Shown piece after piece: positions 3,979-64,000 of a stretch of DNA of 64,000 nucleotides. The position numbers and the translations under genes are program-made. The notes beneath the pieces are model-generated. The model was given only the letters and a program-made list of their open reading frames with translations, ran no database searches and had not been told where the DNA came from. Origin of the DNA: an uncultured Gammaproteobacteria bacterium (GTDB lineage: Bacteria > Patescibacteriota > Patescibacteriia > UBA9934 > CAZDDW01); the NCBI GenBank assembly GCA_965231015.1, contig OZ246408.1:793908-857907 (forward strand), in the 5' to 3' direction. The first letter of the stretch is position 1; each line of letters opens with the position of its first letter.

Positions 3979-4008
3979 ATACCCCTTATTCGTACGAATA
4001 AGGGGTAT
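3979..4008. repeat. Perfect 30-bp palindrome ATACCCCTTATTCGT/ACGAATAAGGGGTAT; a member of a recurring palindromic element family (see also 9966..10030, 33834..33870, 52155..52200)
   Basis: Exact reverse-complement symmetry read directly from the sequence; shares TACCCC/GGGGTA arms and a TTCGTAC/GAA core with the other copies. Confidence 0.8.
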
Positions 4009-9965: not shown

Positions 9966-10030
9966 ACTTTTTCGTACCTACGAACAAACAATATACCCCG
10001 ATTCGTTCGAATAGAGGGTATATTGTTTGT
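9966..10030. repeat. Palindromic element copy: ACTTTTTCGTACCTACGAACAAACA followed by a 15-bp inverted repeat (ACAAACAATATACCC/GGGTATATTGTTTGT) enclosing an inner ATTCG-tt-CGAAT hairpin
   Basis: Direct reading; 25/25 identical to the core at 33834..33858. Confidence 0.75.
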
Positions 10031-20811: not shown

Positions 20812-23800
20812 TTAGAACGGACAGTAATTCATTTCAATATTTGTTAGATTCACGGTTCCCGTGCCTGGGAAACTAATTCTAAACGGCACAGTAAACTCTT
20901 CGTCTGATTCCGGACACTCGAAACCGATTGGGAATAGCAACGGCTGACTATTCCCTTCGTTCATAGTTCCGCTTGAAGTTCCGGCATCAGTGGTATAAGT
21001 GATATGTTTTCCAATAATGGATTCCACAATAGCCTCGTACATATCACGTAAATCTTCGGCGGTTTCACTTGAATAAGCATATTCGATTCCATTGTTTGAA
21101 GGTGAACAATTATCCGCATCAGAAATATCATCCGGTTCATCTCCTGAACAAACATCCGGCATAATTCCGGCTCGTTCACAAACATCACTCGACCAGTGGG
21201 CCATATAACCCTTAAGACTGCTTGATCCGGTCAGGGCAGCAGTATACAAATCCAAAGTTCCGGTTTGCCCCTCACAATCGCGTTTCAAACGCCGAGCCCA
21301 TTCGTCTACCGTGTTTTCACCATCTCCGGCTGTCGGGCTACCATCACTTAATAATACCACCACCTGAACCGTGTCTTCCGGAGCCGGATTTTCCAGCTCA
21401 TTATAAACCGCCTCCAGACCCTCTTCCGGGTAAGTGCTTCCGGATGCGCTGTAAGCATTTACTGTATTGATAAGTGAATATTCATCTTCAGAGGTAGACA
21501 AATTATAATCGATATTACCGGTACCAGGGCTACTAAAGCTAGCTAATCCAATTTCAATGGTTCCATCTTCAAAGGAATCAAACAGTTCTCCAATAGCATC
21601 AATGGTCGCTTCTTTAGCAACATCGAGCCTAGAATCTGAACCATCGAGTAATTCATTCATACTGGTTGACAAATCCATAATAAAGAACACTTGAACGTAT
21701 GGTGGAGTGACTCCAGCGAATGACACATCTGCAGTTAAACTGGATCCAACCCGACAGGCTGGGAAGTACATTAAAGCGGTGTCAGGTGAATCACCGGAGC
21801 CGAAACTATACAGGTCAACTGAATCTGTTTTTAGTGAACCCTCTTCTTCGGCCTCAACCTGGACGGACACACTGGAGAGTGAAAACGGACAACCGGACGA
21901 ACAGTTATCATTACACTCAGGAGCTACACAGGTACCAAGAGAAGTGGTCGGGGGAAACGAGAACGGATTCTGTCCACAATTATCATCGTAGTCGGCAATT
22001 CCAGCGTTGACATCACACGGAACTCCGTTGAAATCTTTTAACTCATCATCAATTGTTCTGTACCCACCATTACAATAACCGGCCGGAGCACACTCGTATA
22101 CTTTATCAGCTATTCCATCCCCATCGTCATCACACAAATCATTGTTATCACACAAATCCTGACAATCTAGAAAACTGTCACAGGCGCCGGAAATATCTCG
22201 CCGGTCAGGGTCTTCATCTTTTAAAATACAATAATTGATTGGCATATCCGTGCCATCACAAAACTCACTTCCGTTAACCTGATCGTCACCACAGTAACCA
22301 CCGCTCATGGTTTGGTACTGACAACTGGCCGTACAGTAGTTACAGCTTCCGCCGTACGGCGCTTCACACGGCACGGCGTTCCCGGCACCCCAGTCACAGG
22401 CTTCAATTCCATCATAACGCTTACCGTCTCCACAAACATTAAACAAGCAGGAAGTAGTGCACTCATCATTGTTATCATCATTTCCATCATCACACTCCTC
22501 TGTTCCTTCTGTTACCCCGTTTCCACAATACCCAGTTCCAATACAGCTCTCACCACCAATTTCGTCCCAACCACCCACAAAATGGCTTGAGTCAGCCTCT
22601 GGCCAAAAACAACCTGTACCAGCAGCGATGTCAGAGTCACACACACGGGTACGCATAGTTTCAAATTCAAAAGTTGAGCATGTGCCATTGGCACATTCTC
22701 CGTCCGTCTGACACGGCTTACCAATTTCGTCTCCGGTATCACACAACTGTGAAGATTCACAGGCTTCATAACCACTGACATTACCACACGTTCCACCCTC
22801 ACAATCATCATCAATTTCACATGGCTCTCCCTCAAGTGACCCTGACGAACAAATCGCGCCGTCCCAAGTCTCTGACTCACCATCACACTCTTCTGATCCG
22901 TTTACTACTCCATCGCCACAGCTTGGTGGATCTCCGGCACAATTAAAGGCACAGCCCTCATCTGGGTCGTATGAATAAATTCCGTTTACGTACTGACAAC
23001 TATTGGCCACGGCCCAAGCACCACTCGTACGAAAATCTTCGTTGTAACCACAGTCACACACTTCACTTCCGGCCAAAGTTCCGTCTCCACAAAAAATTGC
23101 TCCATCAACGTCACAGTCGAGTCCACAATATCCGTACTGACCATTGAAAGCTCCATCATCACACTCTTCTCCATCATCAACAACTCCGTTTCCACAAAGG
23201 TATGGAGTACAAGACGAAGCAGAGTCAGCCGCTTCTTGATATGCGGAACAGTCTGCACTACCACTTACAGCACAGTTTCCACTGTAACAACAAGTGACGG
23301 TTTTTTGACCTTCTATATATGTACAGGTTCCTCCTCCGCAATCAATTGAGTCATTACACGGGTCACCGTTTGAACAAACCCCACTGGCACACTCACCATC
23401 TGCTCCACAGGTGGCAACTACGTCTCCGGCCGGATCACAAACGGTTCCATAATAACTTGATTCAACATCATTAAAACAGATATATACTTCACCCGGATCA
23501 CAATCCACGGTTTGTGTGTCTCCAATTTCACAGGTCTCATTTTCACCCACCACTCCATCGCCACACTCTTCGGAAAGACCAAGTTCGGTTCCATCACAGA
23601 AAAGAGAAGTAGTAAATCCATCCGGATTAGATTCAGACGCATTACCAACGGTAATTTCAGCCCAATCTGTGGTGTCCTGGTCTAGATCATAAGCCCAAGG
23701 AGCGCCATTATATTCTAAATCAACAAACAACTCGTAAGCTTCCCCGGCTATGGAGCGGAAGCCATAGACATGTGAGCCTTCATTGCAAACAAACTGCGAA

Positions 23801-26800
23801 GCGTCCCCGTTCCAACAACTGGTTTCATCATAGCCCTCCGGACAATCGGCTAAATTATTAAGTGGGTCCGTTGGCAAAGCGGCACCCAAATTATTTCCCA
23901 GCTGAGCCTGCCAACTTGGCCAAGCACTATAACTGCGGGAACGTAAAAAACTTCCCACTTGCAATTCCGGTACGGTCTGCACACAAGTTTCACCCCCCGG
24001 ACAGTTATCGTCCACAAAACAGGCCATGGTTTTTGTCACTGAACAACGGCTATTGGTGCTACCGTAGGTATCAATCTGTCCGTACATGCTGCGCAAATCT
24101 GACAAGCGTATAGTGTCACGCTGCAACATTTGTTTTTGTGCTCCACAAACCGCATCGGCTCCGTACTCAAAACACTCGGCGTCATAACTACATTCAGCTA
24201 ACTGTAAACCGTCCGTAGCATTATCAGTATCGATCGGGTTTGCGTAGGCGTCGGTTTCATAACAAAACTCATCATCAAGCAAAACATCATTGGCATTGAA
24301 TGCCCAGCTATCAAGCACTTGCTCAAACACTTCCAAAGTTTCATCCTCTGCCCCTTCATTGTAGGCAATGGCATAAATATTAGAGTAAATGTCCCCGGTC
24401 TGATTGGCCGCATTAACATAAACCGTACGACCGTCCTGAACCGCTTCGTAACCATCCACATCATCGGTTGAAGAATAAGATCCGTCAAAGTTGGCATCGT
24501 ACCAATCACCTGGCGAGTAATAATCCTCGTTGCCAGCAATCCTGACACCAACCGCATCGGTGTAATCATCCCCATCAATCATAAACAGTAACTCACGGAA
24601 TACTCCGGAAGTGGTTTGTGGATTTGGTGCCTCGACCACCCTCATGTTTGGTAGATCATCGCTCGTATCAGCCGCGTCTCCGGCGTCCCGACAATAATAG
24701 AAAGAGAAATTAGAATATGGGAACGGACTGCCAAGATCGGTTCGTACGGACGGACCAAAATCTCCAAGCCCCAGACCCTCAAAGGCGGTATCATATTCTT
24801 CAGTATCAGAAAAAGGGAACGTGCCCACTTGTGGCCATGGATTTTCACACAAGAAGACCATCTCTTCAACCGAACCACTGATTACCTCTCCGGTAGTGCT
24901 TGGATCGTTAAACGAGTCGGATGTCACTGTAGCAGAAGCCACAATATCCTCTTCACCGTTTTTAGATTCAGCAACCGCGTCATTGAGGTCAGTTGTCGCG
25001 GCCGGGTCAGATAAATTTAAAACTGATCCATCTCCGGTTATACCCCAGCTCCAGGTCCAATCATAATAACCGGCAATTGGCGTAATTTCTTCCCGAACGT
25101 TATTACGGATTGTATATGCCGCAGCTTCGAGGTCATGACTTTCAGCCGCTTCAGTAAAGAGTCCTGGACTTGAAGACTTGTCTTCCACTAACACGTCTTC
25201 AAGCTCACAAACCTCAGTTCCGGTCTTGAAACTTGAAGCTAAAAGTTGATTTGCCTCAAAACCATAAAGAGCGTCAGTGATAGTCGGTCGGATAGTGATG
25301 CCGTACTGTGTGGTTACTCCAATGTTGTAAGCAGCCTCGGTATTATCATCCTGCAAATCCTGATCACCTACCACCACCAACCGGTACAAAGAATTCTCTT
25401 CAAGTGGTTGTGAGTAGGTAAAAGTGACCTCGGTACTGCTTTCAGATAAATCATTAGACAGGGTGCCCTCCATGTAACAGACAACGGGATCCTGGGCATA
25501 CACCTCGCGACCGAACAAGCCAGCCACCTTATTAGCCACAAAACGCCAAGCCCGGACGTACCACGGACGATCACCTTCATGTAAAGCAACCAAACTTTCT
25601 TCATAACCGGACGGACAATCACCGGTTTCAAGATCAGCGTCAGGCTGTGCTTCACCGTCCACCAACACTCCTGAACCAAGATAAATTAAGAAAATGTTGT
25701 CCACGGTTTCATTACCAACCTGGACGCGGAAAGACTCAGTATCCATTAAGGAATCAAACTCAGCACTAACCGAGGCGTTACGACACACGTCTTCCCGAGC
25801 ATCTGGAGCAAAAGTGGCGGTTGGTCGATCAGCACAACAACCACCAAAACCACAACCGATCGTAGTATAAGTCGCGACGCCACAATCAAGATCTTCCTCA
25901 CAAGAACAATTGACACCAACTTCAGCTTCTCCGGTAGCTCCGGTGCCGGTTTGACTGTCCGTTCCTTCAGCTCGCAGATCCGTCATGATTGGATTTTCAT
26001 CCAAGACAACCGACGCTTCGATCGCCCCCTCAGATATTTCAGCCACCTGGAACGGATCAATTAAACCGTCCCCGCCGGCCAAAGCGGCTTCACATTCTTC
26101 ACCTGTTCCATAATTGCCATCACCACAAAAAGATGGAGTTGAGTATTCGTGATTTGATCCCTCAAAAAGACCGTCATCAGAACAACCTTCATCAGCTGGA
26201 TCACACTCACCGCTCTCATTCAAACACCGCGAACTGCAACCATCTCCATTCGTTCCATTTCCATCATCACAGTCTTCCCCGTCCTCCCGAGTGCCGTTAC
26301 CACAGACAGCTGTAATTTCGGTTGCATCAAGCGAACCCTCATTTAAACAAATATTGGAACAACCGTCTCCGGAACTATTATTTCCATCATCACACTCCTC
26401 ACCCCCTATAGCATCATTGTGCAAAATAATTCCGTCTCCACAAACTGTGCCAGCGTAACCTGAACCCTCGTTTGTACAAACACTGGAACATCCGTCTAAA
26501 TCATCATTGTTGCCGTCATCACATTCTTCAAAACCATCCATTGATCCGTTTCCGCAAGTTCCGCCATCAGCCACAGCGGCAGTTCCCTCGGTCGTACAGG
26601 TAGCACTACAACCGTCTCCGTCCAGTGGTAAACCAGGGCCGTCATCACAGTCTTCACCAAATTCTTCTACTCCGTTACCGCAAACCGATACTCCGTAATC
26701 ACTTCCCTCGTTCAAACAAAGGCTGGAACATCCGTCCGGAAGTTCACGAGTGGTATCAAGGTTTGCTGGGGTAAAGAAAGCAATCTCGTAATTGTCTGGA

Positions 26801-29800
26801 ACCGTATTATCAATCTCCCAGTTCCAAGCATAGTCATACGCGTCAAGCCGTTGACCGGATGGTGAACACTCGTCCGGTCCGCCGTAAGCAGTGGCTTCGT
26901 AGGCTTGTTGAGCCCCGATTCGATCCAATACTTCACGTTCAGGATTTACTTCAACACGTTCAATACCACACGGAGCAGAATCGGCTTTAGTTTTAAAAAT
27001 CCACTCTTCATCTCCGGAAAGCCCGGTACCACTAAGACTCAACACCCCTTCTACCTGATCAGTTGTTGATGGATCATCACCGGAAATCCGCACCAAATAG
27101 TAAGTATCTTCTTCCAAATCACTTGGCGGACTCAAAGAGATTGACCAATCCCCGGCGTTGTAATTCAGTGTTCCGCCCACCACTTCCGTAGTTCCCAAAT
27201 TACAAAGCGCGTCGGAACACTCATACAGCCGAACATTGCCGTTGAAGCTGGACGAATCCATATCCAAATTAAAGGTCGCGCCAACCACAGCGTTGACACA
27301 AGCCTCTTCACACTCAGGCCATCGGTCTTCTACCCGAGGATCTTCAAAATTGACCTGAATGTCAGAGCTATCTCGTAAATTTTCATCCGTGATCTCGGCA
27401 GTGAGCTCAACCACATGACCGGGTTCAGTTTCAGATTCTGCCTCAACATTATAGGTATCAAAATCAAGCGAGACTAAATCAATAATGTCATCCCAGTCAG
27501 TGTTACCTGTATGCTCAGCATACCAGGTCCACACATCTCCCGGGGTATACAACACCTGACATCCTCCGGCTCCGATTGCGGAAGCATCAAAGTCGCTGTT
27601 TTCTTCAACGAAGGTGTAACTCTTTTCCGGAGGCAACAATAGCACACTCTCTATTTCACAGTCTGAGGTATCAGTCCTGGTCTGAAACTGCCACTCGTAA
27701 TCCGTTTCTAAGGGTTCTCCATCAGGACTTGTAATGCCTCCGATTCCACCAACGAGCGTCACCTGGTACCAAGTACTTGGATCAAAGACGGTACCGGCCG
27801 GCGATGAAATCCACTGGAAAGTGGTGTCAAACTTATCATCAAATTCTCCGTCAACAGTTTCTAAATCAGAACAAGGATCATCCGGATCCAGCCCGACACA
27901 TTTTTCTACAATGACGGTGCTCGTGGTGATACTTGCAAGCTCCACTCCGGGATCAGTTTCAAAAGAACCCTGCACCATTGAATTTACACAAACTTCCTCA
28001 CCGTTCGGCCAGGCTGTGTATGGCGTTGGGCTAATCCAATCATCAGAACATTCAACAATGAGTTGTGGAGCGTCCGGAATTTCTCCGGTAGAAAAACGCC
28101 AAAGGTATTCTGATTCCGGGATAGTTTCACTTGGACAAGTGGCTCGACACGCTCCATCATCACAACAAGTTTCACCTTGTGCGCACTCCGCTCCCCCATC
28201 AAGACAACTAGCCACTTCAAAATTAATCGTGTTTGAGGCAGTACCACCATTATCATAAAGTGTGACCGGTCCGGTGGTAGCTCCGGAAGGCACTTCTACT
28301 CGAACCTGTTCGCCATCACCTCCCCAATAATCAATGTTGGTTACGGCTACCCCATCATAAAAATCAACCGAGCCCTGCACGCTTCCAAACCGTTCACCAT
28401 AAAGATCAACCAACAGGCCCTCCGGACCGTTAGTCGGATCAATGGCACAAATGCTTGGCCCCGGACTGCCACTTGTTACCGTAAACTCGGCCTCATTACT
28501 TTCAGCACCATCATCACGCTCAATCCAAATTGCGGCTGAGCCTCCATCAGCCCATTCCGGTACCTTCATTATAATATTGTCATCCGCCCACCAATTGCTG
28601 GCACAGGCGTCTGGAAAATCAACATCAGCAACATCTGTTGCTCCGGTGGAATCCCTAAACCAAACAATGCCACCCGGCGGATCGTCGTCAAAATTTTCTC
28701 CGTAAATTGTTACGTATTGTCCAATAGGTCCGGTGTCTCCATAGTCTTCACAGGCACCAAAATTACATGGCGTATCATCACCTATTGTACAACCGGTCAC
28801 TGTTGGATCATTGGAACAATAATTTGGTACGTCCAAAGTACAGGTTCCAGCACAATCACTGTCAGCACTACAAGCTAAATCCGTGTTGTCGGCACAATAA
28901 TCAAGACCGGAATCAACATAACTGATGACCGGAGTCTCTTGTTCCGTCTCTGAGCTAACCGTAAACTGAACCGTGTTTGAACCATTCCCTTCTACAAAAA
29001 CCTGAACCTGATAATTACGAGCTGATACTTGAGGAACCGGGAAGCTAATACTTTCATCATTCCAATTTTGATACTCACTTGGTTCGTATCCGGTATTTCC
29101 GTAAAGAAGGTAAAGATTGTCCTCGGTCGTACCGAAATTTTTACCCGTGGCTACCACAATATCGTCCGGCAAACCACTTTCCGGATTAACGTCACACATA
29201 CTTGGTCGCACAGTACCATCTTCCGTGAAATCAATAATGACTGGGCCACGGTCATAATCATCGGTTCGGTCAGACAAAGGACCGTCAGCTTCAGCCGGCT
29301 CAGTCACAATTATGATCGGCCCGTCAACAAACCCGTTTGGTACCTCTACCACCACCTGAGTGCTGGTCCACGGATCAGCACAGTCAGCCACTAATGCCTG
29401 TACGTCATCATCATCTCCTTCTTCATCACCGTCCCCGTCCGTATCCGCTCCTAAAAACCAAACTTCTCCTTCTGCGTCATTAAAATATTCTCCTGAAATT
29501 GTAATGTAGTTTCCTGAGGTACCCTGGGTTGGTGAAACATAAGTTATTTCCGGATACCCAACACAAGTTCCCTCCTCACAAATTCCACTGGCACAATCAC
29601 CGTTTTCCGTACAAGATTCACCATCACAAGATAGACAATCATCTCCACCACAATCTACTCCGCTTTCGTCTTCGTCCTGCACACCGTTGGTACAGTGAGC
29701 AACCAAAGCGCTCACTGTAATGGAATCCGATAAAGTAGAGCGGCCGGAACAGTCATAGGCACGCGTACTCAAATTGTGTGAACCAAGAGAGGGCTCCGTC

Positions 29801-30798
29801 CAGTTGGCACTGTAGAGATCTGGCTCGCCAAGATTCAAAACCACTCCGTTGTCTTCAAATGAACTGTCAACGTAAAACTTAACCCGGTTGATTCCACCGT
29901 CGTCTGTGGCAATTGATTGCATAAGTGCCAGTTCTCCTACCGGAACTGAACCCCCATCATCCGGGTACGTCATCTCAACGGATGGGTCAGAGGTATCAAT
30001 TAAGTCCCCGGTGGTAAAAGTTGATTGACAGTCTTCACCCGGTGAACCACAGGTAATTAGCTCGCCACCGGTTTCTTTTAGACCGGCTCCGATTTGAACC
30101 GTGTAAGTAGTATTGGCATCAAAACAAAATTCAGCAGGGTCTTCCGGACAAACCGCTGACGGGGTAAACATAACCTCATCATCTTCAGTGTCAAAAGTTC
30201 CATCCACCGGATCACCAAGCGGATCCTGAATCTGGATGTTGCTGGCAATCGTAGAGGTGTCAACAGAATTATTAAATAAAATAGTGACCACTACATTTTT
30301 ATTTGGTAGATCACCGGTAGCACAACCATAACTCTCAATAATAAATTCATCATAAATCGGTGGGTTATCACCCGGATCCCAAGGGTCATCCCCCTCCTCC
30401 CCGGTTCCGGTGCCACCACCTACCGCGTCTACTAAAGAAGAAATAACAAATGTGGTAATGGCCCAGGCAGACATGATGATAACCATGCCAATTACAGCAT
30501 TCACCAACACCTTTTTAGCTTTACTGATTTTTTCCGCCTGACCACCTGAAGTCATCCACAAAAATCCGCCATAAATAATTAGGCCAAGCAAAACCACGCC
30601 GGCAAAACTGAGAGCGGTACGGATGAGTCGCGCCACTACAACCCGAATGTCAGCCTGAGCGAACCCGGCCTGTTCGGCAAACTGCTGAAACGCTGTTTCA
30701 TCAACCGGACCTTGAGCCAAGGCCTCGGTTCCAACAACCAAACCAAAGAGCGTAAGCCCGATGATCATGATCCAATAATTTTGGCGGATATATTTCAT
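20812..30798 (-). CDS. Giant (3328 aa) cell-surface protein: N-terminal pilin-like hydrophobic domain, Ig-like/IPT-TIG domains, myxococcus-type Cys-rich repeats (CGNG..ECDDGN), C-terminal von Willebrand factor A domain
   Basis: Uninterrupted 9987-nt ORF; IPT-like [22 protein letters not shown]; at least 4 CxxGxxExGExCDDGN repeats; vWA MIDAS DLSTSM...LLSDGSPT. Confidence 0.85.
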
Positions 30799-33880: not shown

Positions 33881-33904
33881 AAAAGACCGTGCTATTGCAC
33901 GGTC
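33881..33904 (-). terminator. Rho-independent terminator for yqeY (GACCGTGC-tatt-GCACGGTC with T4 on the minus strand)
   Basis: 8-bp perfect stem. Confidence 0.55.
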
Positions 33905-46210: not shown

Positions 46211-46236
46211 AAAACCCCGCATAATCGCGGGGTTTT
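46211..46236. terminator. Bidirectional rho-independent terminator AAAA-CCCCGC-ataatc-GCGGGG-TTTT
   Basis: Perfect 6-bp GC stem flanked by A4/T4. Confidence 0.7.
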
Positions 46237-51300: not shown

Positions 51301-52140
51301 TTGCCCGGTATTCAAATAGTGCGGGTCAGTAGCGGAGAAGAAGCAGCAAAGATTATCCTAAGCTCGCCAGATAATTGCTTGATTACAAGACCGGGAACGG
51401 ATCTTAATCAGTTGTTCAGAGTTCTTGAATTCATGGCCGCTGACTTCGACGGCACGACAATCCAGGGTGGGAGCCTTTGGAAAAAAACAGACCGACGTCT
51501 TCCTGAACATATCCGGAATGAGGTCAAGGAACAGTTTGCTCGTTATCACGAGGAGCAAGAGACCACAAGCCTTGACGTACCCATGAATCTGTTTCGCCAC
51601 ATTCGTTTCGCAGTCGAAAAGTATGTGGAGGCCGGGTTTGCCAAAAGTGACCTGCATGAAATTGCTGAAGAACTGGAAATACGTCCCGGCTTTCGCAGGC
51701 TTCATGCCCTCATGGAAAAAACTTGTATTGTTTCGGTTGGGTTTGCCGAAACGATTCAACATCTGGTCGAGCACCGCCACTTGCCCTGCGAGGTGATGGG
51801 AACCATGATCGCTTTTGACGACAACGGGTGCGCTTGCGGGTATAAATCAAACCAGATCATGGTTGACACCACCAAGGGTCATGCTGTTCTGGAATTCATG
51901 CTCCGACGCACCAAGAGCATGCACTTCAGGAAACTGCTCGTTATTGGTGACACTATCAATGACCGAGCCATGATGTTCCCAGGTGCGGTCAACATCTTGC
52001 TGGTTGATCCAACAGGTAAAGTGTTGCCGAACCGAGGACCCGGCTACATCAACACCATGTGGGACAACCTGACCTGTATCCTCTACCACGACAATTTCGA
52101 ACCTTTGGTCGAGCTCATCGAAAACGCTCGCCACACGTGA
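51301..52140 (+). CDS. HAD-superfamily hydrolase; GC-rich
   Basis: Motif I AADFDGTT, motif II SVGF, motif IV VIGDTINDRAMM; the track start is a TTG and the true start may be further in. Confidence 0.6.
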   Translation: MPGIQIVRVSSGEEAAKIILSSPDNCLITRPGTDLNQLFRVLEFMAADFDGTTIQGGSLWKKTDRRLPEHIRNEVKEQFARYHEEQETTSLDVPMNLFRHIRFAVEKYVEAGFAKSDLHEIAEELEIRPGFRRLHALMEKTCIVSVGFAETIQHLVEHRHLPCEVMGTMIAFDDNGCACGYKSNQIMVDTTKGHAVLEFMLRRTKSMHFRKLLVIGDTINDRAMMFPGAVNILLVDPTGKVLPNRGPGYINTMWDNLTCILYHDNFEPLVELIENARHT

Positions 52141-52154
52141 GACCTGCTCCAGGT

Positions 52155-52200
52155 CTCTTTTTCGTACAAAAAATCCCCTCGGATTAACGAGAGGGCTTTT
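52155..52200. repeat. Palindromic-element family copy (CTCTTTTTCGTAC + CCCTC-ggattaacga-GAGGG-CTTTT hairpin) immediately 3' of the HAD gene
   Basis: Shares the cTTTTTCGTAC core with 9966.. and 33834..; also probably serves as a terminator. Confidence 0.6.
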
Positions 52201-52296
52201 GGCCTGCCAACCGAAGACAGACAGAGTCCCCCTTCGCTAAAGCTTCGGGGACAACCAACCTTCGACCATAATCATCAATCAATTACAGGCGAAGGT

Positions 52297-52373
52297 TGGT
52301 TGCGGGAGCCGGATTTGAACCGGCGACCTTCGGGTTATGAGCCCGACGAGCTGCCTGACTGCTCTATCCCGCG
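52297..52373 (-). tRNA. Initiator tRNA-fMet (CAT)
   Basis: C1xA72 mismatch, three G-C pairs closing the anticodon stem (GGG/CCC), near-identity to E. coli tRNA-fMet over long stretches. Confidence 0.9.
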
Positions 52374-52705: not shown

Positions 52706-52735
52706 TACCACAAAAATGTCCACTGTATTAGTGGA
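52706..52735 (+). terminator. Rho-independent terminator (GTCCAC-tgtatta-GTGGAC-GTTTTGTGTTT)
   Basis: 6-bp stem + T-rich tail. Confidence 0.55.
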
Positions 52736-52770
52736 CGTTTTGTGTTTATAAGAGTATAATTTTTACTATT

Positions 52771-59805: not shown

Positions 59806-59826
59806 AAACAATAACTAGCGCTATTT

Positions 59827-59853
59827 TAGCTTATTTTAGAGGGATTTGCAAAT
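59827..59853. promoter_or_regulatory. 27-nt conserved element TAGCTTATTTTAGAGGGATTTGCAAAT (contains the 10-bp palindrome ATTTGCAAAT) in the asnS 5' region
   Basis: 26/27 identical to 61526..61552, also just upstream of a minus-strand gene. Confidence 0.5.
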
Positions 59854-59928
59854 CCACTTACCAACAGATCAAGCTCTTCCAAAATTAGGCCTAATGTCCT
59901 ATAATGACTACGATAAGATAAAAGAACT

Positions 59929-60108
59929 ATGAAAACAAAGGAAGAGATCCAATACAAGAAAAAGCTTAAAGAAATTGAGGTTCAGCTCAAAAAATTGCAA
60001 ACCCAATTTAATAACATTAGAAAACGAGCTCGGGATTCGAAAGCCAAAGCAATATCAACTGATGATGCCGGTAAAATTGCCAAAATCAGGAAACAACTTG
60101 GACTATAG
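59929..60108 (+). CDS. Small basic protein (59 aa, MKTKEEIQYKKKLKEIEVQLKKLQTQFNNIRKRARDSKAKAISTDDAGKIAKIRKQLGL)
   Basis: ATG at 59929 preceded by a TATAAT (59900..59905); the stop lies inside the 25-bp stem hairpin. Confidence 0.35.
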   Translation: MKTKEEIQYKKKLKEIEVQLKKLQTQFNNIRKRARDSKAKAISTDDAGKIAKIRKQLGL

Positions 60109-60156
60109 TGACACAAAAACACCTCGCGTAAGCGAGGTGTTTTTGTGTCACTATAG
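60103..60156. terminator. Perfect inverted repeat with 25-bp stem (CTATAGTGACACAAAAACACCTCGC / GCGAGGTGTTTTTGTGTCACTATAG) and GTAA (GNRA) tetraloop; bidirectional terminator or structured RNA element
   Basis: Exact reverse complementarity over 25 nt read from the sequence; lies between convergent genes. Confidence 0.8.
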
Positions 60157-60165
60157 TTGAAATGA

Positions 60166-61491
60166 TTATGTTTCTGTTTGCCTTTTGTTCTCTTGAGCAG
60201 AAGCGTATTGCTTGATTTGTTCACCTAAATTTTCTTGTATTTGTTGAACAGCGTTAATAACTTGCTGTCGATCTTCGGATGCTTCTGCTTTTCGTAGTTC
60301 TGTTTTATAAATTATTGCTTCACGCATAAGAGTGTCGGCCATATCTGTTTTCACTTCATCTTTTATTTCACTGACTCTGTCTGCCCATTCATCAATTTTA
60401 TCAACCATTTCCTTCTGACCGGGTACAGATTCGGCTACGCTATAACCAAATGACATCCCGCTCTTTAGTGCGTCTTCTGTTGATCCTCCATGTTTCTCAT
60501 CAAAATCCTTAATACTCACCCCATCTGCCTCGAAAATCTTTTTTCTTTGATCAAATATTTGCTTTCGTGTTGCCTCATCAATATTTGGGTCATTAAGGTT
60601 TGCCTCTGCTAGTTTCTTTTTAAATACTTTTCGTTCTCGTCCAGCAGGGATATTCTCTAGAATCTGATCCATCACTTGAGCTGCTTTGGGTTTTTCACTT
60701 TCTATTCGTTTATCTGCTTCTGCTTTAAATGCTTCTAATGTAACATCAACTAAATCTTTTGCGTCTTCTTTACCGCTTATTGCTGCAGTTTGTTCAATTG
60801 TACCTGAACCTGCTATATCCTCAATATTTCGTCTAGATTGTTCTCCGCGCGAAGAAATAAACTCACTAGGTTGTGTTTTACTTTCCCATCTTGACTTAGA
60901 TAACGCACTACTCCAATCTTCGTCAGGATTTTGCACCCCGTCCTTTAATGCAACAAGATGCTGTCGAAAACTATCAGGAATGTTTGTTGCCGGATCATCT
61001 AAAACGTCTTGCAACCCATTGGTGATATTATCTATAGAGTCTTGTAACCCAGAAGCTTCTTGTGTCTCTGCAGCAGGCTCTTCTGTTTCCCCTGCTTCTT
61101 CTGTCTCCTCAGATTCTTCAGCAACCTCAATATCCTCATCTTCTTCAAGAGCCTTAATCTCGGCATCAATCCTGACTACCTCAACTTGTAATGCTTCAAA
61201 TTTTTGAGTGGCTTCTGTAGCCTCAGTTTTAATAGCATCAATCTCGGCAGCAGCTTCGGGATCAAGGTTCTCTCCCATTTCTTTTGCGAACGCTTCTGCT
61301 TCGGCAATAGCTTCACTAGCTTCTGCTGCTCTGGCTTCTACCTTCATAAGCTCCGCTTCAACAGCTTCACGTTCGGCCTGAAGTTCTCCTCGCTCTTCAG
61401 CTTTGGCTTGTTCAGCAGCCGCCTCTGCCTTTCTGGAGTCCCCAGCCTCCTGTTTGGCTCGCATAGCTGCGAGTCTTTCTTTCATACTCAT
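60166..61491 (-). CDS. Acidic coiled-coil protein (441 aa, Ala/Glu-rich N-terminus)
   Basis: Intact ORF; no TM; heptad-like AEA/EEA runs. Confidence 0.65.
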   Translation of the reverse strand: MSMKERLAAMRAKQEAGDSRKAEAAAEQAKAEERGELQAEREAVEAELMKVEARAAEASEAIAEAEAFAKEMGENLDPEAAAEIDAIKTEATEATQKFEALQVEVVRIDAEIKALEEDEDIEVAEESEETEEAGETEEPAAETQEASGLQDSIDNITNGLQDVLDDPATNIPDSFRQHLVALKDGVQNPDEDWSSALSKSRWESKTQPSEFISSRGEQSRRNIEDIAGSGTIEQTAAISGKEDAKDLVDVTLEAFKAEADKRIESEKPKAAQVMDQILENIPAGRERKVFKKKLAEANLNDPNIDEATRKQIFDQRKKIFEADGVSIKDFDEKHGGSTEDALKSGMSFGYSVAESVPGQKEMVDKIDEWADRVSEIKDEVKTDMADTLMREAIIYKTELRKAEASEDRQQVINAVQQIQENLGEQIKQYASAQENKRQTET

Positions 61492-61692: not shown

Positions 61693-64000
61693 TCACTGTT
61701 TAACTACTTCCTTACGTACATGACTATACATCCGCTCTCCAAAGAACGTTTTCAACTCCGGATTCTTATCAAGCTTTTTATAAAAATCCATTTTTTGCTT
61801 AAACATGTTAATCAACTCATTCTGTAACACCTGATCAAATTTAATTTTAGCAGCATCCACAGAATTATTCTTAATTGCTCCCTGTACAGAAATATCACTT
61901 ACTAATTTCTCTGCAATGCGACCGATATCAACAATATCCTCAGCTGTAAACTCAGTTCCAAACCGGTCATTCATCTCTTTAACGATCGCTGACAAAGACT
62001 CTTTTTCTTCAATCTTCTTTTTTGTATCCCCATTGTTCATTGGTTCAAGTTGACCATCTTCTGAATCCAACTGGATTGTACCCTTGATTTGTTCCAATAA
62101 TTTATATGATTCAATATCCACACTTTCCAGAATTTCTGTAGGAAGTTCTTCTTTCACCTTGGGCAACTTCTTGGCGAGTAACTTGGTAAACATAAACAGT
62201 TTCTCCAACTCACTACTCTCATATGGAATGATCTGTGCTGCAAAAGCAAATCGACGCACGAATTCTTTACACTTCTTTTTGAAATCATCCCGCAATTCAT
62301 CAGTCTCATCCTCGAAACGCTCAACAACAATGTCCAGAGCAGCATTTATCTTATCCGGACCTTGATTCTTTAATAAATCATCAACCAAACCGGACACTTC
62401 ATGTTCGGTAAATAATTTGAAAGCGTACAAATCGCGCTCAAGATCATGCAATAAGTTCGGATCTGTACCTTCAGAAAGAACAGTGGTGATATAGTACGGC
62501 TGAAACGCCTCTTTAATTTCATCCATCTCATTCACAAAATCTAAAACAAAAACCTCTTCTTTGCCGGCCCGACAACGGTTTAATCTTCCCAGAGCCTGAA
62601 CTGCCCCTACACCACTCAATTTCTTATCAACGTACATTACATCTAACAATGGCTGATCAAAACCGGTTTGAAATTTTTCAGCCACAATCAAGAACTTATT
62701 ACTATTCTTCTTAAATTCCTCGGCTGTTGCTTGGTCAGGTACGCCATTCATTTGAGCTTCCGTGTATTCGGCACCACCATCTCTTACTGTTCCAGAAAAA
62801 GCAACCAGTGCTTTAAAAGGATAATTATGCTCAGCAAGATATTTATCAAAAGCCTGCTTGTATCGAACGGCATGCAGCCGTGACTTTGTTACTACCATCG
62901 CCTTAGCCTTACCATGAATCTGTTTGGCAATTCGATTATTAAAATGCTCAATCATTACCTCGGTTTTCTTTCCAATGGCATGTTCGTGCTTCTCGACATA
63001 CCCAATTAAAAGTCGTTGTGCTTTGCTCTTCTCAAACTCTGGATCATCTTCAATAGACTTCATTAAATTAAAGTACGCCTTATAGGTTGTGTAGTTTTTT
63101 AGAACATCCAAAATAAAGCCTTCCTCAATCGCTTGTTTCATTGAATACAAGCTAAACGGATAGTATTTTCCGTCTAGTGGATTCTTTGTCCCGAACAACT
63201 CCAGTGTCCGTTGCTTTGATGTAGCTGTAAAGGCAAAAAAGCTAATATTTGGGGTCTTTACTTTACGTGACCGCAGCTTCTTAATCACTTTGTCTTCCGT
63301 TGTCTCAGGGGCAAATGACTCTTCCTGATTTTCCGCTTCATCCAAACTATCAGTCTGCAACACCTCGCGCAGCTGAGCCGCCTGATCTCCGGATTGCGAA
63401 GAATGAGCTTCGTCAATCAATACCGCAAAATTCCTTCCGGGAATATTTTCAATCGTGTCGATAATAAACGGGAACTTCTGAAGCGTGGTAATAATAATCT
63501 GCTCACCGGATTCCAATGCTTCCTTTAGTTCGGTTGAATTTTCTGTGATCGCTTTTACCACACCTTGAACCTGCTCATACTGTTTGATTATATCTCTAAG
63601 CTGTTTATCAAGCACTCGTCGATCAGTAATAACAAGGATGGTATCAAAAATTCTTATATTGTCCTCGTTGTAGAGCTCGGATAACTGATGAGCCGTCCAA
63701 GCGATAGTGTTACTTTTCCCACTGCCGGCACTATGTTGGATCAAATAATTCTGGCCTGACTCATTTTCCTGAGCATCACTAATAAGCCTTTGAACCGTGT
63801 CGCGTTGATGATAACGTGGAAAAATTAGAGTTTCTGTCTTGTATTTTTTCCCTTTGTCGTCTTCCTTTTCTTCAATTTGGATCGTAATATACTTTTTTAT
63901 CAACTCTAAAACACTATCGCGTGTCCAAACATCCTCCCATAAGTATGAGGTTTTATAACCATTTTCAACCGGTGGATTACCCGCGCCGTTTTGATAACCT
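61693..64000 (-). CDS. hsdR: Type I restriction enzyme R subunit (HsdR), helicase and C-terminal parts; N-terminal part runs off the window edge
   Basis: SF2 motifs I (HSAGSGKSNT) and II (VLIDEAHSS); the track's TTG at 63903 is not the start, as the frame stays open to position 64000. Confidence 0.8.
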   Translation of the reverse strand, partial: GYQNGAGNPPVENGYKTSYLWEDVWTRDSVLELIKKYITIQIEEKEDDKGKKYKTETLIFPRYHQRDTVQRLISDAQENESGQNYLIQHSAGSGKSNTIAWTAHQLSELYNEDNIRIFDTILVITDRRVLDKQLRDIIKQYEQVQGVVKAITENSTELKEALESGEQIIITTLQKFPFIIDTIENIPGRNFAVLIDEAHSSQSGDQAAQLREVLQTDSLDEAENQEESFAPETTEDKVIKKLRSRKVKTPNISFFAFTATSKQRTLELFGTKNPLDGKYYPFSLYSMKQAIEEGFILDVLKNYTTYKAYFNLMKSIEDDPEFEKSKAQRLLIGYVEKHEHAIGKKTEVMIEHFNNRIAKQIHGKAKAMVVTKSRLHAVRYKQAFDKYLAEHNYPFKALVAFSGTVRDGGAEYTEAQMNGVPDQATAEEFKKNSNKFLIVAEKFQTGFDQPLLDVMYVDKKLSGVGAVQALGRLNRCRAGKEEVFVLDFVNEMDEIKEAFQPYYITTVLSEGTDPNLLHDLERDLYAFKLFTEHEVSGLVDDLLKNQGPDKINAALDIVVERFEDETDELRDDFKKKCKEFVRRFAFAAQIIPYESSELEKLFMFTKLLAKKLPKVKEELPTEILESVDIESYKLLEQIKGTIQLDSEDGQLEPMNNGDTKKKIEEKESLSAIVKEMNDRFGTEFTAEDIVDIGRIAEKLVSDISVQGAIKNNSVDAAKIKFDQVLQNELINMFKQKMDFYKKLDKNPELKTFFGERMYSHVRKEVVKQ

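Follow-up and report, generated by a model that had tools for sequence, protein, structure and literature searches.

A perfect 26-bp hairpin lying between two convergent genes of an uncultivated Patescibacteria bacterium is very probably a bidirectional intrinsic (Rho-independent) terminator that the two genes have in common. It is a known kind of element, conserved in position and in structure among related genomes, and it is an unusually long example of its kind, with a lineage-specific extension. The anatomy of the hairpin, the terminator calls on both strands and the positional and structural conservation, with compensatory changes, were observed directly. Termination itself is what we infer from the calls on both strands, the convergent genes and the compensated hairpins at the orthologous junctions, and the strong bidirectional terminator that the first-pass annotation had listed among its possible readings is thereby supported. 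In what follows, the window is the whole stretch of DNA that was analysed (64,000 nucleotides). It belongs to a genome of about 1.0 Mb, whose nearest relatives for AsnRS (63–78% identity) are Patescibacteria, many of them labelled Uhrbacteria. The positions of the features are given in Table 1.

Table 1. Features of the hairpin junction in the window, and hairpins found at the orthologous junctions.
Feature	Position	Strand	Description
Complete perfect palindrome	60102..60157	both	26-nt arms and 4-nt GTAA centre
Left outer extension, ACTATAGTGACAC	60102..60114		the small ORF ends here, with CTA as its last sense codon, TAG as its stop and TGA as a further stop
A5 tract	60115..60119		read as the U-tract when the - strand (441-aa gene) is transcribed; in + strand RNA, paired with the U-tract
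GC-rich core hairpin, CACCTCGC-GTAA-GCGAGGTG	60120..60139	both	8 bp with 6 G-C pairs, loop of 4; terminator stem proper
T5 tract	60140..60144		U-tract (TTTTTGTGT, 7 T out of 9); expected 3' end region of the small-ORF transcript
Right outer extension, GTGTCACTATAGT	60145..60157		mirrors the left extension; without counterpart in relatives
59-aa basic coiled-coil protein gene	59929..60108	+	uncharacterised Patescibacteria family of about 60 aa; its transcription unit would be ended by the hairpin
Putative promoter of the small ORF, TTCCAA-17 nt-TATAAT	59877..59905	+	read from the sequence; alignment A7
Convergent 441-aa acidic coiled-coil protein gene	60166..61491	-	TAA stop 8 nt beyond the right arm
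L002 hairpin, AAATAAAAATATCCTGCA-cta-TGCAGGATATTTTTATTT			perfect stem of 18 bp
L003 hairpin, TAAACATAAATCCCAGCA-taa-TGCTGGGATTTATGTTTA			perfect stem of 18 bp
L086 hairpin, AAAATACTCCGC-acaaa-GCGGAGTATTTT			perfect stem of 12 bp, then a 2-nt bulge and 3 more pairs
L084/L085 hairpin, left arm AAAAACACCCCGC			one substitution from the window core; both contigs end in the loop

Structure of the hairpin

From end to end, the palindrome reads ACTATAGT-GACAC-A5-CACCTCGC-GTAA-GCGAGGTG-T5-GTGTC-ACTATAGT, in which ACTATAGT is its own reverse complement. An inverted-repeat search placed the two arms, of 26 nt each and 100% complementary, at 60102-60127 and 60132-60157; the first-pass annotation had recognised the perfect hairpin but, with a 25-bp stem at 60103-60156, had missed one pair at each end. 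The very low free energy that it had presumed was found on folding: the 56-nt RNA forms a single unbroken stem of -45.3 kcal/mol on the + strand and -44.4 kcal/mol on the - strand (z = -13.1 and -13.9, respectively; none of 200 shuffles did equally well), and in a context of 101 nt the value is -52.5 kcal/mol (z = -11.1). As for the GNRA loop, it is present as GUAA in the + strand RNA, but the other strand has UUAC, and the loop is not conserved in relatives. The hairpin does lie between convergent genes, as had been noted, namely the 59-aa ORF on the + strand and the 441-aa ORF on the - strand, and it fills the 57-bp gap between them, with the TAG of the basic 59-aa ORF sitting inside the left arm, again in line with the annotation.

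The next-longest perfect inverted repeats with a short loop in the 64-kb window have arms of 15 nt, against 26 nt here, and no second copy of the hairpin arm was found in the window at up to 3 mismatches (0.00 expected). The hairpin is not a contig-end artefact, since an independent Logan assembly of SRR7048221 carries the identical hairpin sequence within a 6.6-kb contig. Near-matches to the outer 13-mer occur at three window sites, with 2 mismatches; none of them is part of a hairpin, as they fall within genes or at a start codon.

The predicted terminator core

The inner 30 nt have the layout of a textbook bidirectional intrinsic terminator: an A-tract, a GC-rich stem of 8 bp, a 4-nt loop and a T-tract. 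The core at 60120-60139 falls within the dimensions of intrinsic terminators (GC-rich stem of about 5–14 bp, loop of 3–8 nt), and a T/U-rich tract directly follows this stem, which is not the case for the 26-bp stem taken as a whole. The default terminator scan of the window did not list the hairpin, since it takes the stem to its full length, after which no T-rich tail follows; once the outer arm was trimmed, the core was called as a terminator on both the + and the - strands, with 8 pairs, 6 G-C, a loop of 4 and the tail TTTTTGTGTC. This tail is supplied by the T5 tract on the + strand and by the A5 tract on the - strand, and the columns of both tracts are conserved in alignment A5. The statement in the first-pass annotation that there are only short T runs therefore does not hold, as a T5 directly after and an A5 directly before the GC-rich inner stem make up the signature of a terminator.

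The core is also situated at the end of both transcription units, starting 12 nt from the + strand stop (60106-60108) and 27 nt from the - strand stop (60166-60168), between genes that converge on it (59929-60108 on the + strand, 60166-61491 on the - strand) and that it would both serve. Its two-way character is apparent from the A5 that mirrors the T5, from the terminator calls on both strands and from the equal folding energies, the 30-nt core RNA with its A/U tracts reaching -19.9 and -19.0 kcal/mol on the two strands. These values match those of the complete orthologous hairpins (-17.7 to -25.0 kcal/mol) and of another terminator of the window, at 46211-46236 (-17.0 kcal/mol), so that the functional unit is an ordinary one; the outer 13 bp more than double the stability of the core.

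The terminator at 46211-46236, AAAACCCCGC-ataatc-GCGGGGTTTT, likewise stands between convergent genes and has the same succession of A-tract, GC-rich stem and T-tract, as have further hairpins at 52139-52157, 52718-52736 and 33885-33904. Similar hairpins acting as ordinary terminators had been named in the first-pass annotation as what would tell against its interpretation; the same design does recur at other junctions of the window, but none of these hairpins is nearly as long. Since window junctions share this design, the genome carries conventional hairpin-plus-T-tract signals, which indicates that it uses canonical hairpin-plus-U-tract termination. To our knowledge, there is no experimental study of intrinsic termination in Patescibacteria. 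In Rfam, the hairpin had no match, the only window hits above the gathering threshold being tRNAs; the best local hit at the hairpin was a generic hairpin match of 28.8 bits against a threshold of 88, and permissive thresholds returned nothing there either.

Orthologous junctions and covariation

A homologous hairpin is found at the same junction in four related Patescibacteria genomes, with stems of 18, 18 and 12 bp in three of them and an assembly cut in the loop in the fourth, the closest relative (Table 1). Two of these genomes, L002 (GCA_964480695.1) and L003 (GCA_018701105.1, an Uhrbacteria MAG), were found via protein homology. The convergent arrangement of the small ORF and the 441-aa homologue is kept in L002, L003, L086 to L088, L091 and the JGI contig (JGI 3300072015, 157 kb), which belongs to the closest relative and has a gap of 61 bp. 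In L003, the two genes take their stop codons from the palindrome itself, as its outermost TAA and TTA.

The hairpins of the relatives line up with that of the window in alignment A5, made with MAFFT and blind to structure. Six core pairs are 100% paired in all four genomes, and five of the 13 pairs have changed on both sides, none on one side only, always to Watson-Crick and never to G-U pairs. The covariation amounts to 0.41, against 0.17 ± 0.05 in shuffled alignments (0 of 500 reached 0.41) and at most 0.17 when the partners were slid. Such a pattern is what selection on pairing in both strands would predict and, coming from four sequences, it is indicative rather than a statistical proof. 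The junction offers a clean, small example of a terminator that would evolve by compensatory changes under a two-strand constraint.

A census of 580 kb, made up of the window and 82 Patescibacteria loci, gave 30 perfect hairpins with a stem of at least 11 bp and a loop of 3–9 nt, where random-sequence arithmetic gives about one. The three longest all belong to this one junction: that of the window (26 bp) and those of L002 and L003 (18 bp each), the window having been picked for its hairpin and the other two not. Eighty loci gathered via AsnRS have neither the small ORF nor the 441-aa gene and served as census background only. In the distant family members L091 and L089/L090, no strong hairpin was found after the small gene, so that the element is not obligatory for the gene pair.

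Another distant member of the small-gene family, from marine GOS data (L092), has a perfect, A/T-rich 17-bp hairpin 72 nt after the stop (708-747), AAATAAATAAAGTACCT-ctagtc-AGGTACTTTATTTATTT, which is another long, fully mirrored, terminator-like palindrome. Also, the L084 and L085 contigs, from two independent assemblies (ENA ERZ4231641 and JGI 3300038360), break off at an identical base in the orthologous hairpin's loop (positions 1546 and 1476, respectively); perfect palindromes of this kind may break de Bruijn graph assemblies.

Proposed mode of action and comparison with known terminators

On either strand, the polymerase would first pass through the GC-rich stem of 8 bp, CACCUCGC/GCGAGGUG, and its loop of 4 nt, and next transcribe a run of U5; the nascent hairpin together with the weak rU:dA hybrid would release the transcript. 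In the + direction, this would end the monocistronic mRNA of the 59-aa gene; in the - direction, it would end that of the 441-aa gene before the polymerase could run antisense through the small gene into the AsnRS-AspRS-ScpAB operon. A stop in both directions would spare each gene antisense transcription and would prevent read-through into the aminoacyl-tRNA synthetase operon. As both strands must fold, there is no tolerance for pairs other than Watson-Crick ones, and the A-tract is a mirror image of the U-tract, which leads to a perfect palindrome of about 13–18 bp, as in the relatives. In an uncultivated genome of about 1 Mb, the hairpin would mark the 3' end of each of two transcription units, which is of importance for annotation and little else.

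In Term-seq surveys, A-tracts upstream of the stem mark bidirectional terminators, and the median terminator has a stem of 20–28 paired nt and a 4-nt loop (PMC12207403). For terminators common to convergent genes, a stronger constraint and an evolution through compensatory switches have been described (PMC5381666). The hairpin resembles the bidirectional terminators mapped by Term-seq in Bacillus, Listeria, Enterococcus and E. coli in its GC-rich stem next to a 4-nt loop, its mirrored A- and U-tracts, the short gap between convergent stops and the compensatory Watson-Crick switches. It differs from them in that the palindrome runs on perfectly for 13 bp past the A/T tracts, bringing the stem to 52 paired nt, about twice the median range of 20–28, and in that one of the two genes has its stop codon 5 bp into the stem. 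The first-pass annotation, which judged the hairpin far longer than an ordinary terminator, was thus right for the full stem, but the core fits an ordinary terminator.

With the orthologous hairpins (L002, L003, L086 and L084/L085), it shares the junction, the A-tract with a C/T-rich core ending in GC, the perfect stem and a small-ORF stop codon inside the stem or at its base. The orthologues differ by their stems of 12–18 bp, by the absence of GACAC/GTGTC and of a mirrored ACTATAGT, and by proteins that end in LGLK or LGLE.

The outer extension

Compared with the relatives, only the outer 9–13 bp, ACTATAGTG(ACAC)/(GTGT)CACTATAGT, are peculiar to the genome of the window. In the relatives, GGACTAAAGT/GGACTGAAAT is joined straight to the A-tract, and GACAC is absent. 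The coding sequence ends in GGA CTA AAG TAA AAA CAC C in L084 and in GGA CTG AAA TAA AAA in L002 and L086, against GGA CTA TAG TGA CAC AAA AAC ACC in the window, where TAG replaces the lysine codon AAG, the protein ends in LGL (LGLK/E in the relatives) and GACAC stands as a 5-base insertion, although the direction of these changes cannot be established from four taxa. Both differences are mirrored exactly on the far side, as GTGTC and ACTATAGT, where the relatives have unrelated sequence, and the intergenic gap is 57 bp in the window vs. 33–39 bp in the relatives (18–24 bp shorter). At least nine additional perfect pairs cannot be chance (4^-9), and something specific must have produced or keep them.

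Termination releases the RNA within the U-tract, so that the outer right arm is outside the terminated transcript and cannot contribute to termination. The extension is therefore not required by the terminator model and lies beyond the expected 3' end. Intramolecular template-switching in replication is the simplest way to obtain mirrored changes at a palindrome's base. Given that the hairpin is a terminator, it is the likeliest origin of the extension, with about even chances, and the symmetry alone points to it: a nascent-strand hairpin would copy the opposite flank and yield a longer palindrome. Template-switching makes quasipalindromes 'perfect or more perfect' (PMC7202029), and the hairpin is comparable to the outcome of quasipalindrome correction in the lacZ QP reporters of E. 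coli in that both arms carry symmetric changes that make an inverted repeat perfect or longer, the window having mirrored insertions at the base of both arms relative to the relatives. Quasipalindrome correction is nonetheless a mutational mechanism and not a class of elements, and it would be recognised here from its end product only. The lengthened palindrome may then be a natural example of the growth of an inverted repeat by template-switching.

The extension is unlikely to serve a function for which it was itself selected, and its contribution would be secondary at most: it could keep ragged 3' ends base-paired, and read-through RNA could form a 26-bp duplex that RNase III could cut. It is improbable, in particular, that the full 26-bp duplex, which exceeds two helical turns, was selected as an RNase III or processing site, likewise raised in the first-pass annotation, a fail-safe behind the terminator by which read-through transcripts would be destroyed or matured. 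The unbroken 26-bp stem with its tetraloop, present on both strands at about -45 kcal/mol, would suit such a role, the predicted stem exceeding the approximately 20 bp of unbroken dsRNA of an RNase III substrate, though in read-through RNA only; the extension is perfect even though it lies outside the part needed for termination, and the junction carries the longest perfect hairpins of the 580 kb in three genomes. However, the outer arm would be transcribed only when the terminator is read through, the relatives manage with 12–18 bp, so that the length is not conserved, and a neutral origin by template-switching explains the same facts. Little weight is likewise given to the possibility that selection has kept the outer 13 bp as a second layer, whereby escaped transcripts would form the 26-bp duplex and become a target either of cleavage by RNase III or of binding by the small basic protein. 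Were it true, the junction would be a 'terminator plus dsRNA fail-safe' module insulating two tightly packed convergent genes in a streamlined genome, and the grouping of the three longest hairpins of the 580 kb at one junction would reflect locus-specific selection for extreme stem length.

Other interpretations of the palindrome

The outer repeats could also be read as the trace of an insertion, in which a MITE- or REP-like element, the 40-bp palindrome at 60110-60149, would have entered with an 8-bp target duplication, ACTATAGT. This is very improbable. ACTATAGT is indeed present as a direct repeat around the 40-bp inverted repeat (60102-60109 and 60150-60157), but it is self-complementary, so that the 'direct repeat' is merely the end of the palindrome. 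REP and MITE extragenic palindromes are similarly short, can occupy the 3' gap between convergent genes and could affect termination or mRNA stability; the hairpin of the window, in contrast, turned up as a single copy wherever it was searched for, does not show the conserved sequence of a family and is an ancestral feature of its site. At the same junction, the relatives have a homologous hairpin and not an empty site, and the inner palindrome is an orthologue of it (A5-CACCYCGC in L084). The left ACTA(T/A)AGT represents the ancestral coding-sequence end (GGA CTA AAG T in L084), and there is no transposase nearby. No second arm, core or outer 13-mer in a hairpin context was found within the window, which covers about 6% of the source genome. 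The look for other copies that the first-pass annotation had proposed gave none in the public collections searched either: there were no exact matches to the 44-nt centre in genome contigs or to a 20-nt arm segment in viral and metagenome contigs, and viral contigs gave no match to the outer arms when their interior was allowed to vary, the source genome itself being evidently absent from these collections. Another of its suggestions, a tiny mobile element with the hairpin as its terminal inverted repeat, is not supported: none of the searches turned up a second copy, and the inner palindrome was already present ancestrally at the site.

The probability is just as slight that the palindrome acts at the DNA level, as a cruciform or as a symmetric site bound by a protein in replication, in recombination (dif- or att-like) or in the organisation of the chromosome. 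Such a site would indeed present a perfect Watson-Crick palindrome with no G-T pair, but a function of the RNA of both strands equally expects no G-T pairs, and the succession of A-tract, GC-stem and T-tract is specific to terminators. Among the orthologues, pairing is conserved and sequence is not, while a protein site would conserve sequence. The ScpA and ScpB genes are 3–4 kb away (by synteny), but there is no adjacent recombinase, and the cumulative GC skew falls steadily through the region. The replication or recombination site considered in the first-pass annotation is set aside on account of this skew without inflection and of the conservation of structure rather than sequence.

Finally, a pair of outward-facing phage-type (T7/SP6-like) promoters, suggested by the resemblance of GTGTCACTATAG to the SP6/T7 core TCACTATAG, by the exact occurrence of this 9-mer on both strands and by 14 of 18 positions matching the SP6 promoter by eye, has a negligible probability and is refuted for practical purposes, since the motif occurs at up to 1 mismatch seven times in the window vs. 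7.6 expected, with no enrichment, such promoters would fire antisense into both genes, and there is no single-subunit RNA polymerase, phage context or match to phage DNA.

Flanking genes and putative promoters

The 59-aa ORF, strongly basic with many K/R residues and ending in TAG followed by an in-frame TGA, is a genuine gene. An exhaustive HMMER search (E<=1e-3) recovered a family of 32 cluster representatives, of 53–81 aa plus a few longer ones, where a word-index search had found one homologue only. The family pattern in alignment A6 is L-x-E-[IV]-E-x-x-L-K-x-L-Q-x-x-F-x-D-I-K-K-R-A ... L-R-K-x-L-G-L. Searches of Pfam, NCBIfam and the PDB with the small protein gave no family beyond generic coiled-coil noise.

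Upstream of the ORF, the boxes TTCCAA (59877-59882) and TATAAT (59900-59905) have counterparts in the relatives, of the form TTCCAA/TTCCAT/TTTTAA-17-TATACT. The consensus promoter scan did not list this putative promoter, whose -35 hexamer matches at 3 of 6 positions. With a conserved promoter-like element of its own, the small ORF would be a monocistronic unit of about 250 nt ending at the hairpin. In the relatives L084, L086 and L002, the -10 box TATACT is only 7–8 nt before the ATG of the small ORF, a spacing that suggests a leaderless mRNA there. Unlike these relatives, the window has a 15-nt purine-rich insertion, GATAAGATAAAAGAAC, within 59906-59928, which would give the small ORF a short 5' UTR.

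Between the divergent AsnRS gene and small ORF, the intergenic region (59806-59928) has a mean column identity of 77% across four genomes (L002, 7480-7590; L084, 1238-1350; L086, 2888-3000), far above that of the flanking proteins. It holds an invariant 18-nt tandem, TATTTTAGCTTATTTTAG, which makes two TAAAAT boxes on the AsnRS strand, as well as a palindromic TTGCAA that is usable as a -35 hexamer. The region is probably a back-to-back promoter pair and may include a regulator site.

Along the - strand, an HsdR-like helicase (61693-63903) is followed by the 441-aa protein, the hairpin, AsnRS, AspRS, ScpA and ScpB. The 441-aa protein has no Pfam match and only five homologues among 5.8 billion sequences, to which a second profile search added none; a search of metagenomes for related loci with the 441-aa family found nothing. 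The small basic family of about 60 aa is repeatedly convergent with an acidic coiled-coil protein of 340–440 aa, even where the neighbours differ, and this recurrent gene order hints at a functional link between the two proteins. The HsdR-like ORF on the - strand, with a GC content of about 0.40, has SWI2/SNF2, ResIII and T1R domain 3 matches; it opens directly with the ATPase domain and seems to be without the N-terminal nuclease region. This region of lower GC takes the place of the GATase/RecO neighbourhood that L002 and the JGI contig show upstream of their 441-aa homologue, and is possibly an inserted or decaying restriction-modification island. Elsewhere in the window, a single ORF of 3328 aa occupies 20812-30798 on the - strand, in a long run of genes on the same strand.

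Other inverted repeats in the window

Two further perfect palindromes were found between convergent features, both with 15-nt arms and without clear T-tracts: ATACCCCTTATTCGT/ACGAATAAGGGGTAT at 3979-4008, which has no spacer, and ACAAACAATATACCC/GGGTATATTGTTTGT at 9984-10030, with a spacer of 17 nt. Beside the tRNA cluster, two imperfect inverted repeats are present, one at 51792-51873 with arms of 27 nt (78%), and one at 52252-52302 with arms of 21 nt (86%), the right arm of which overlaps the 3' end of tRNA-Met (52297-52373).
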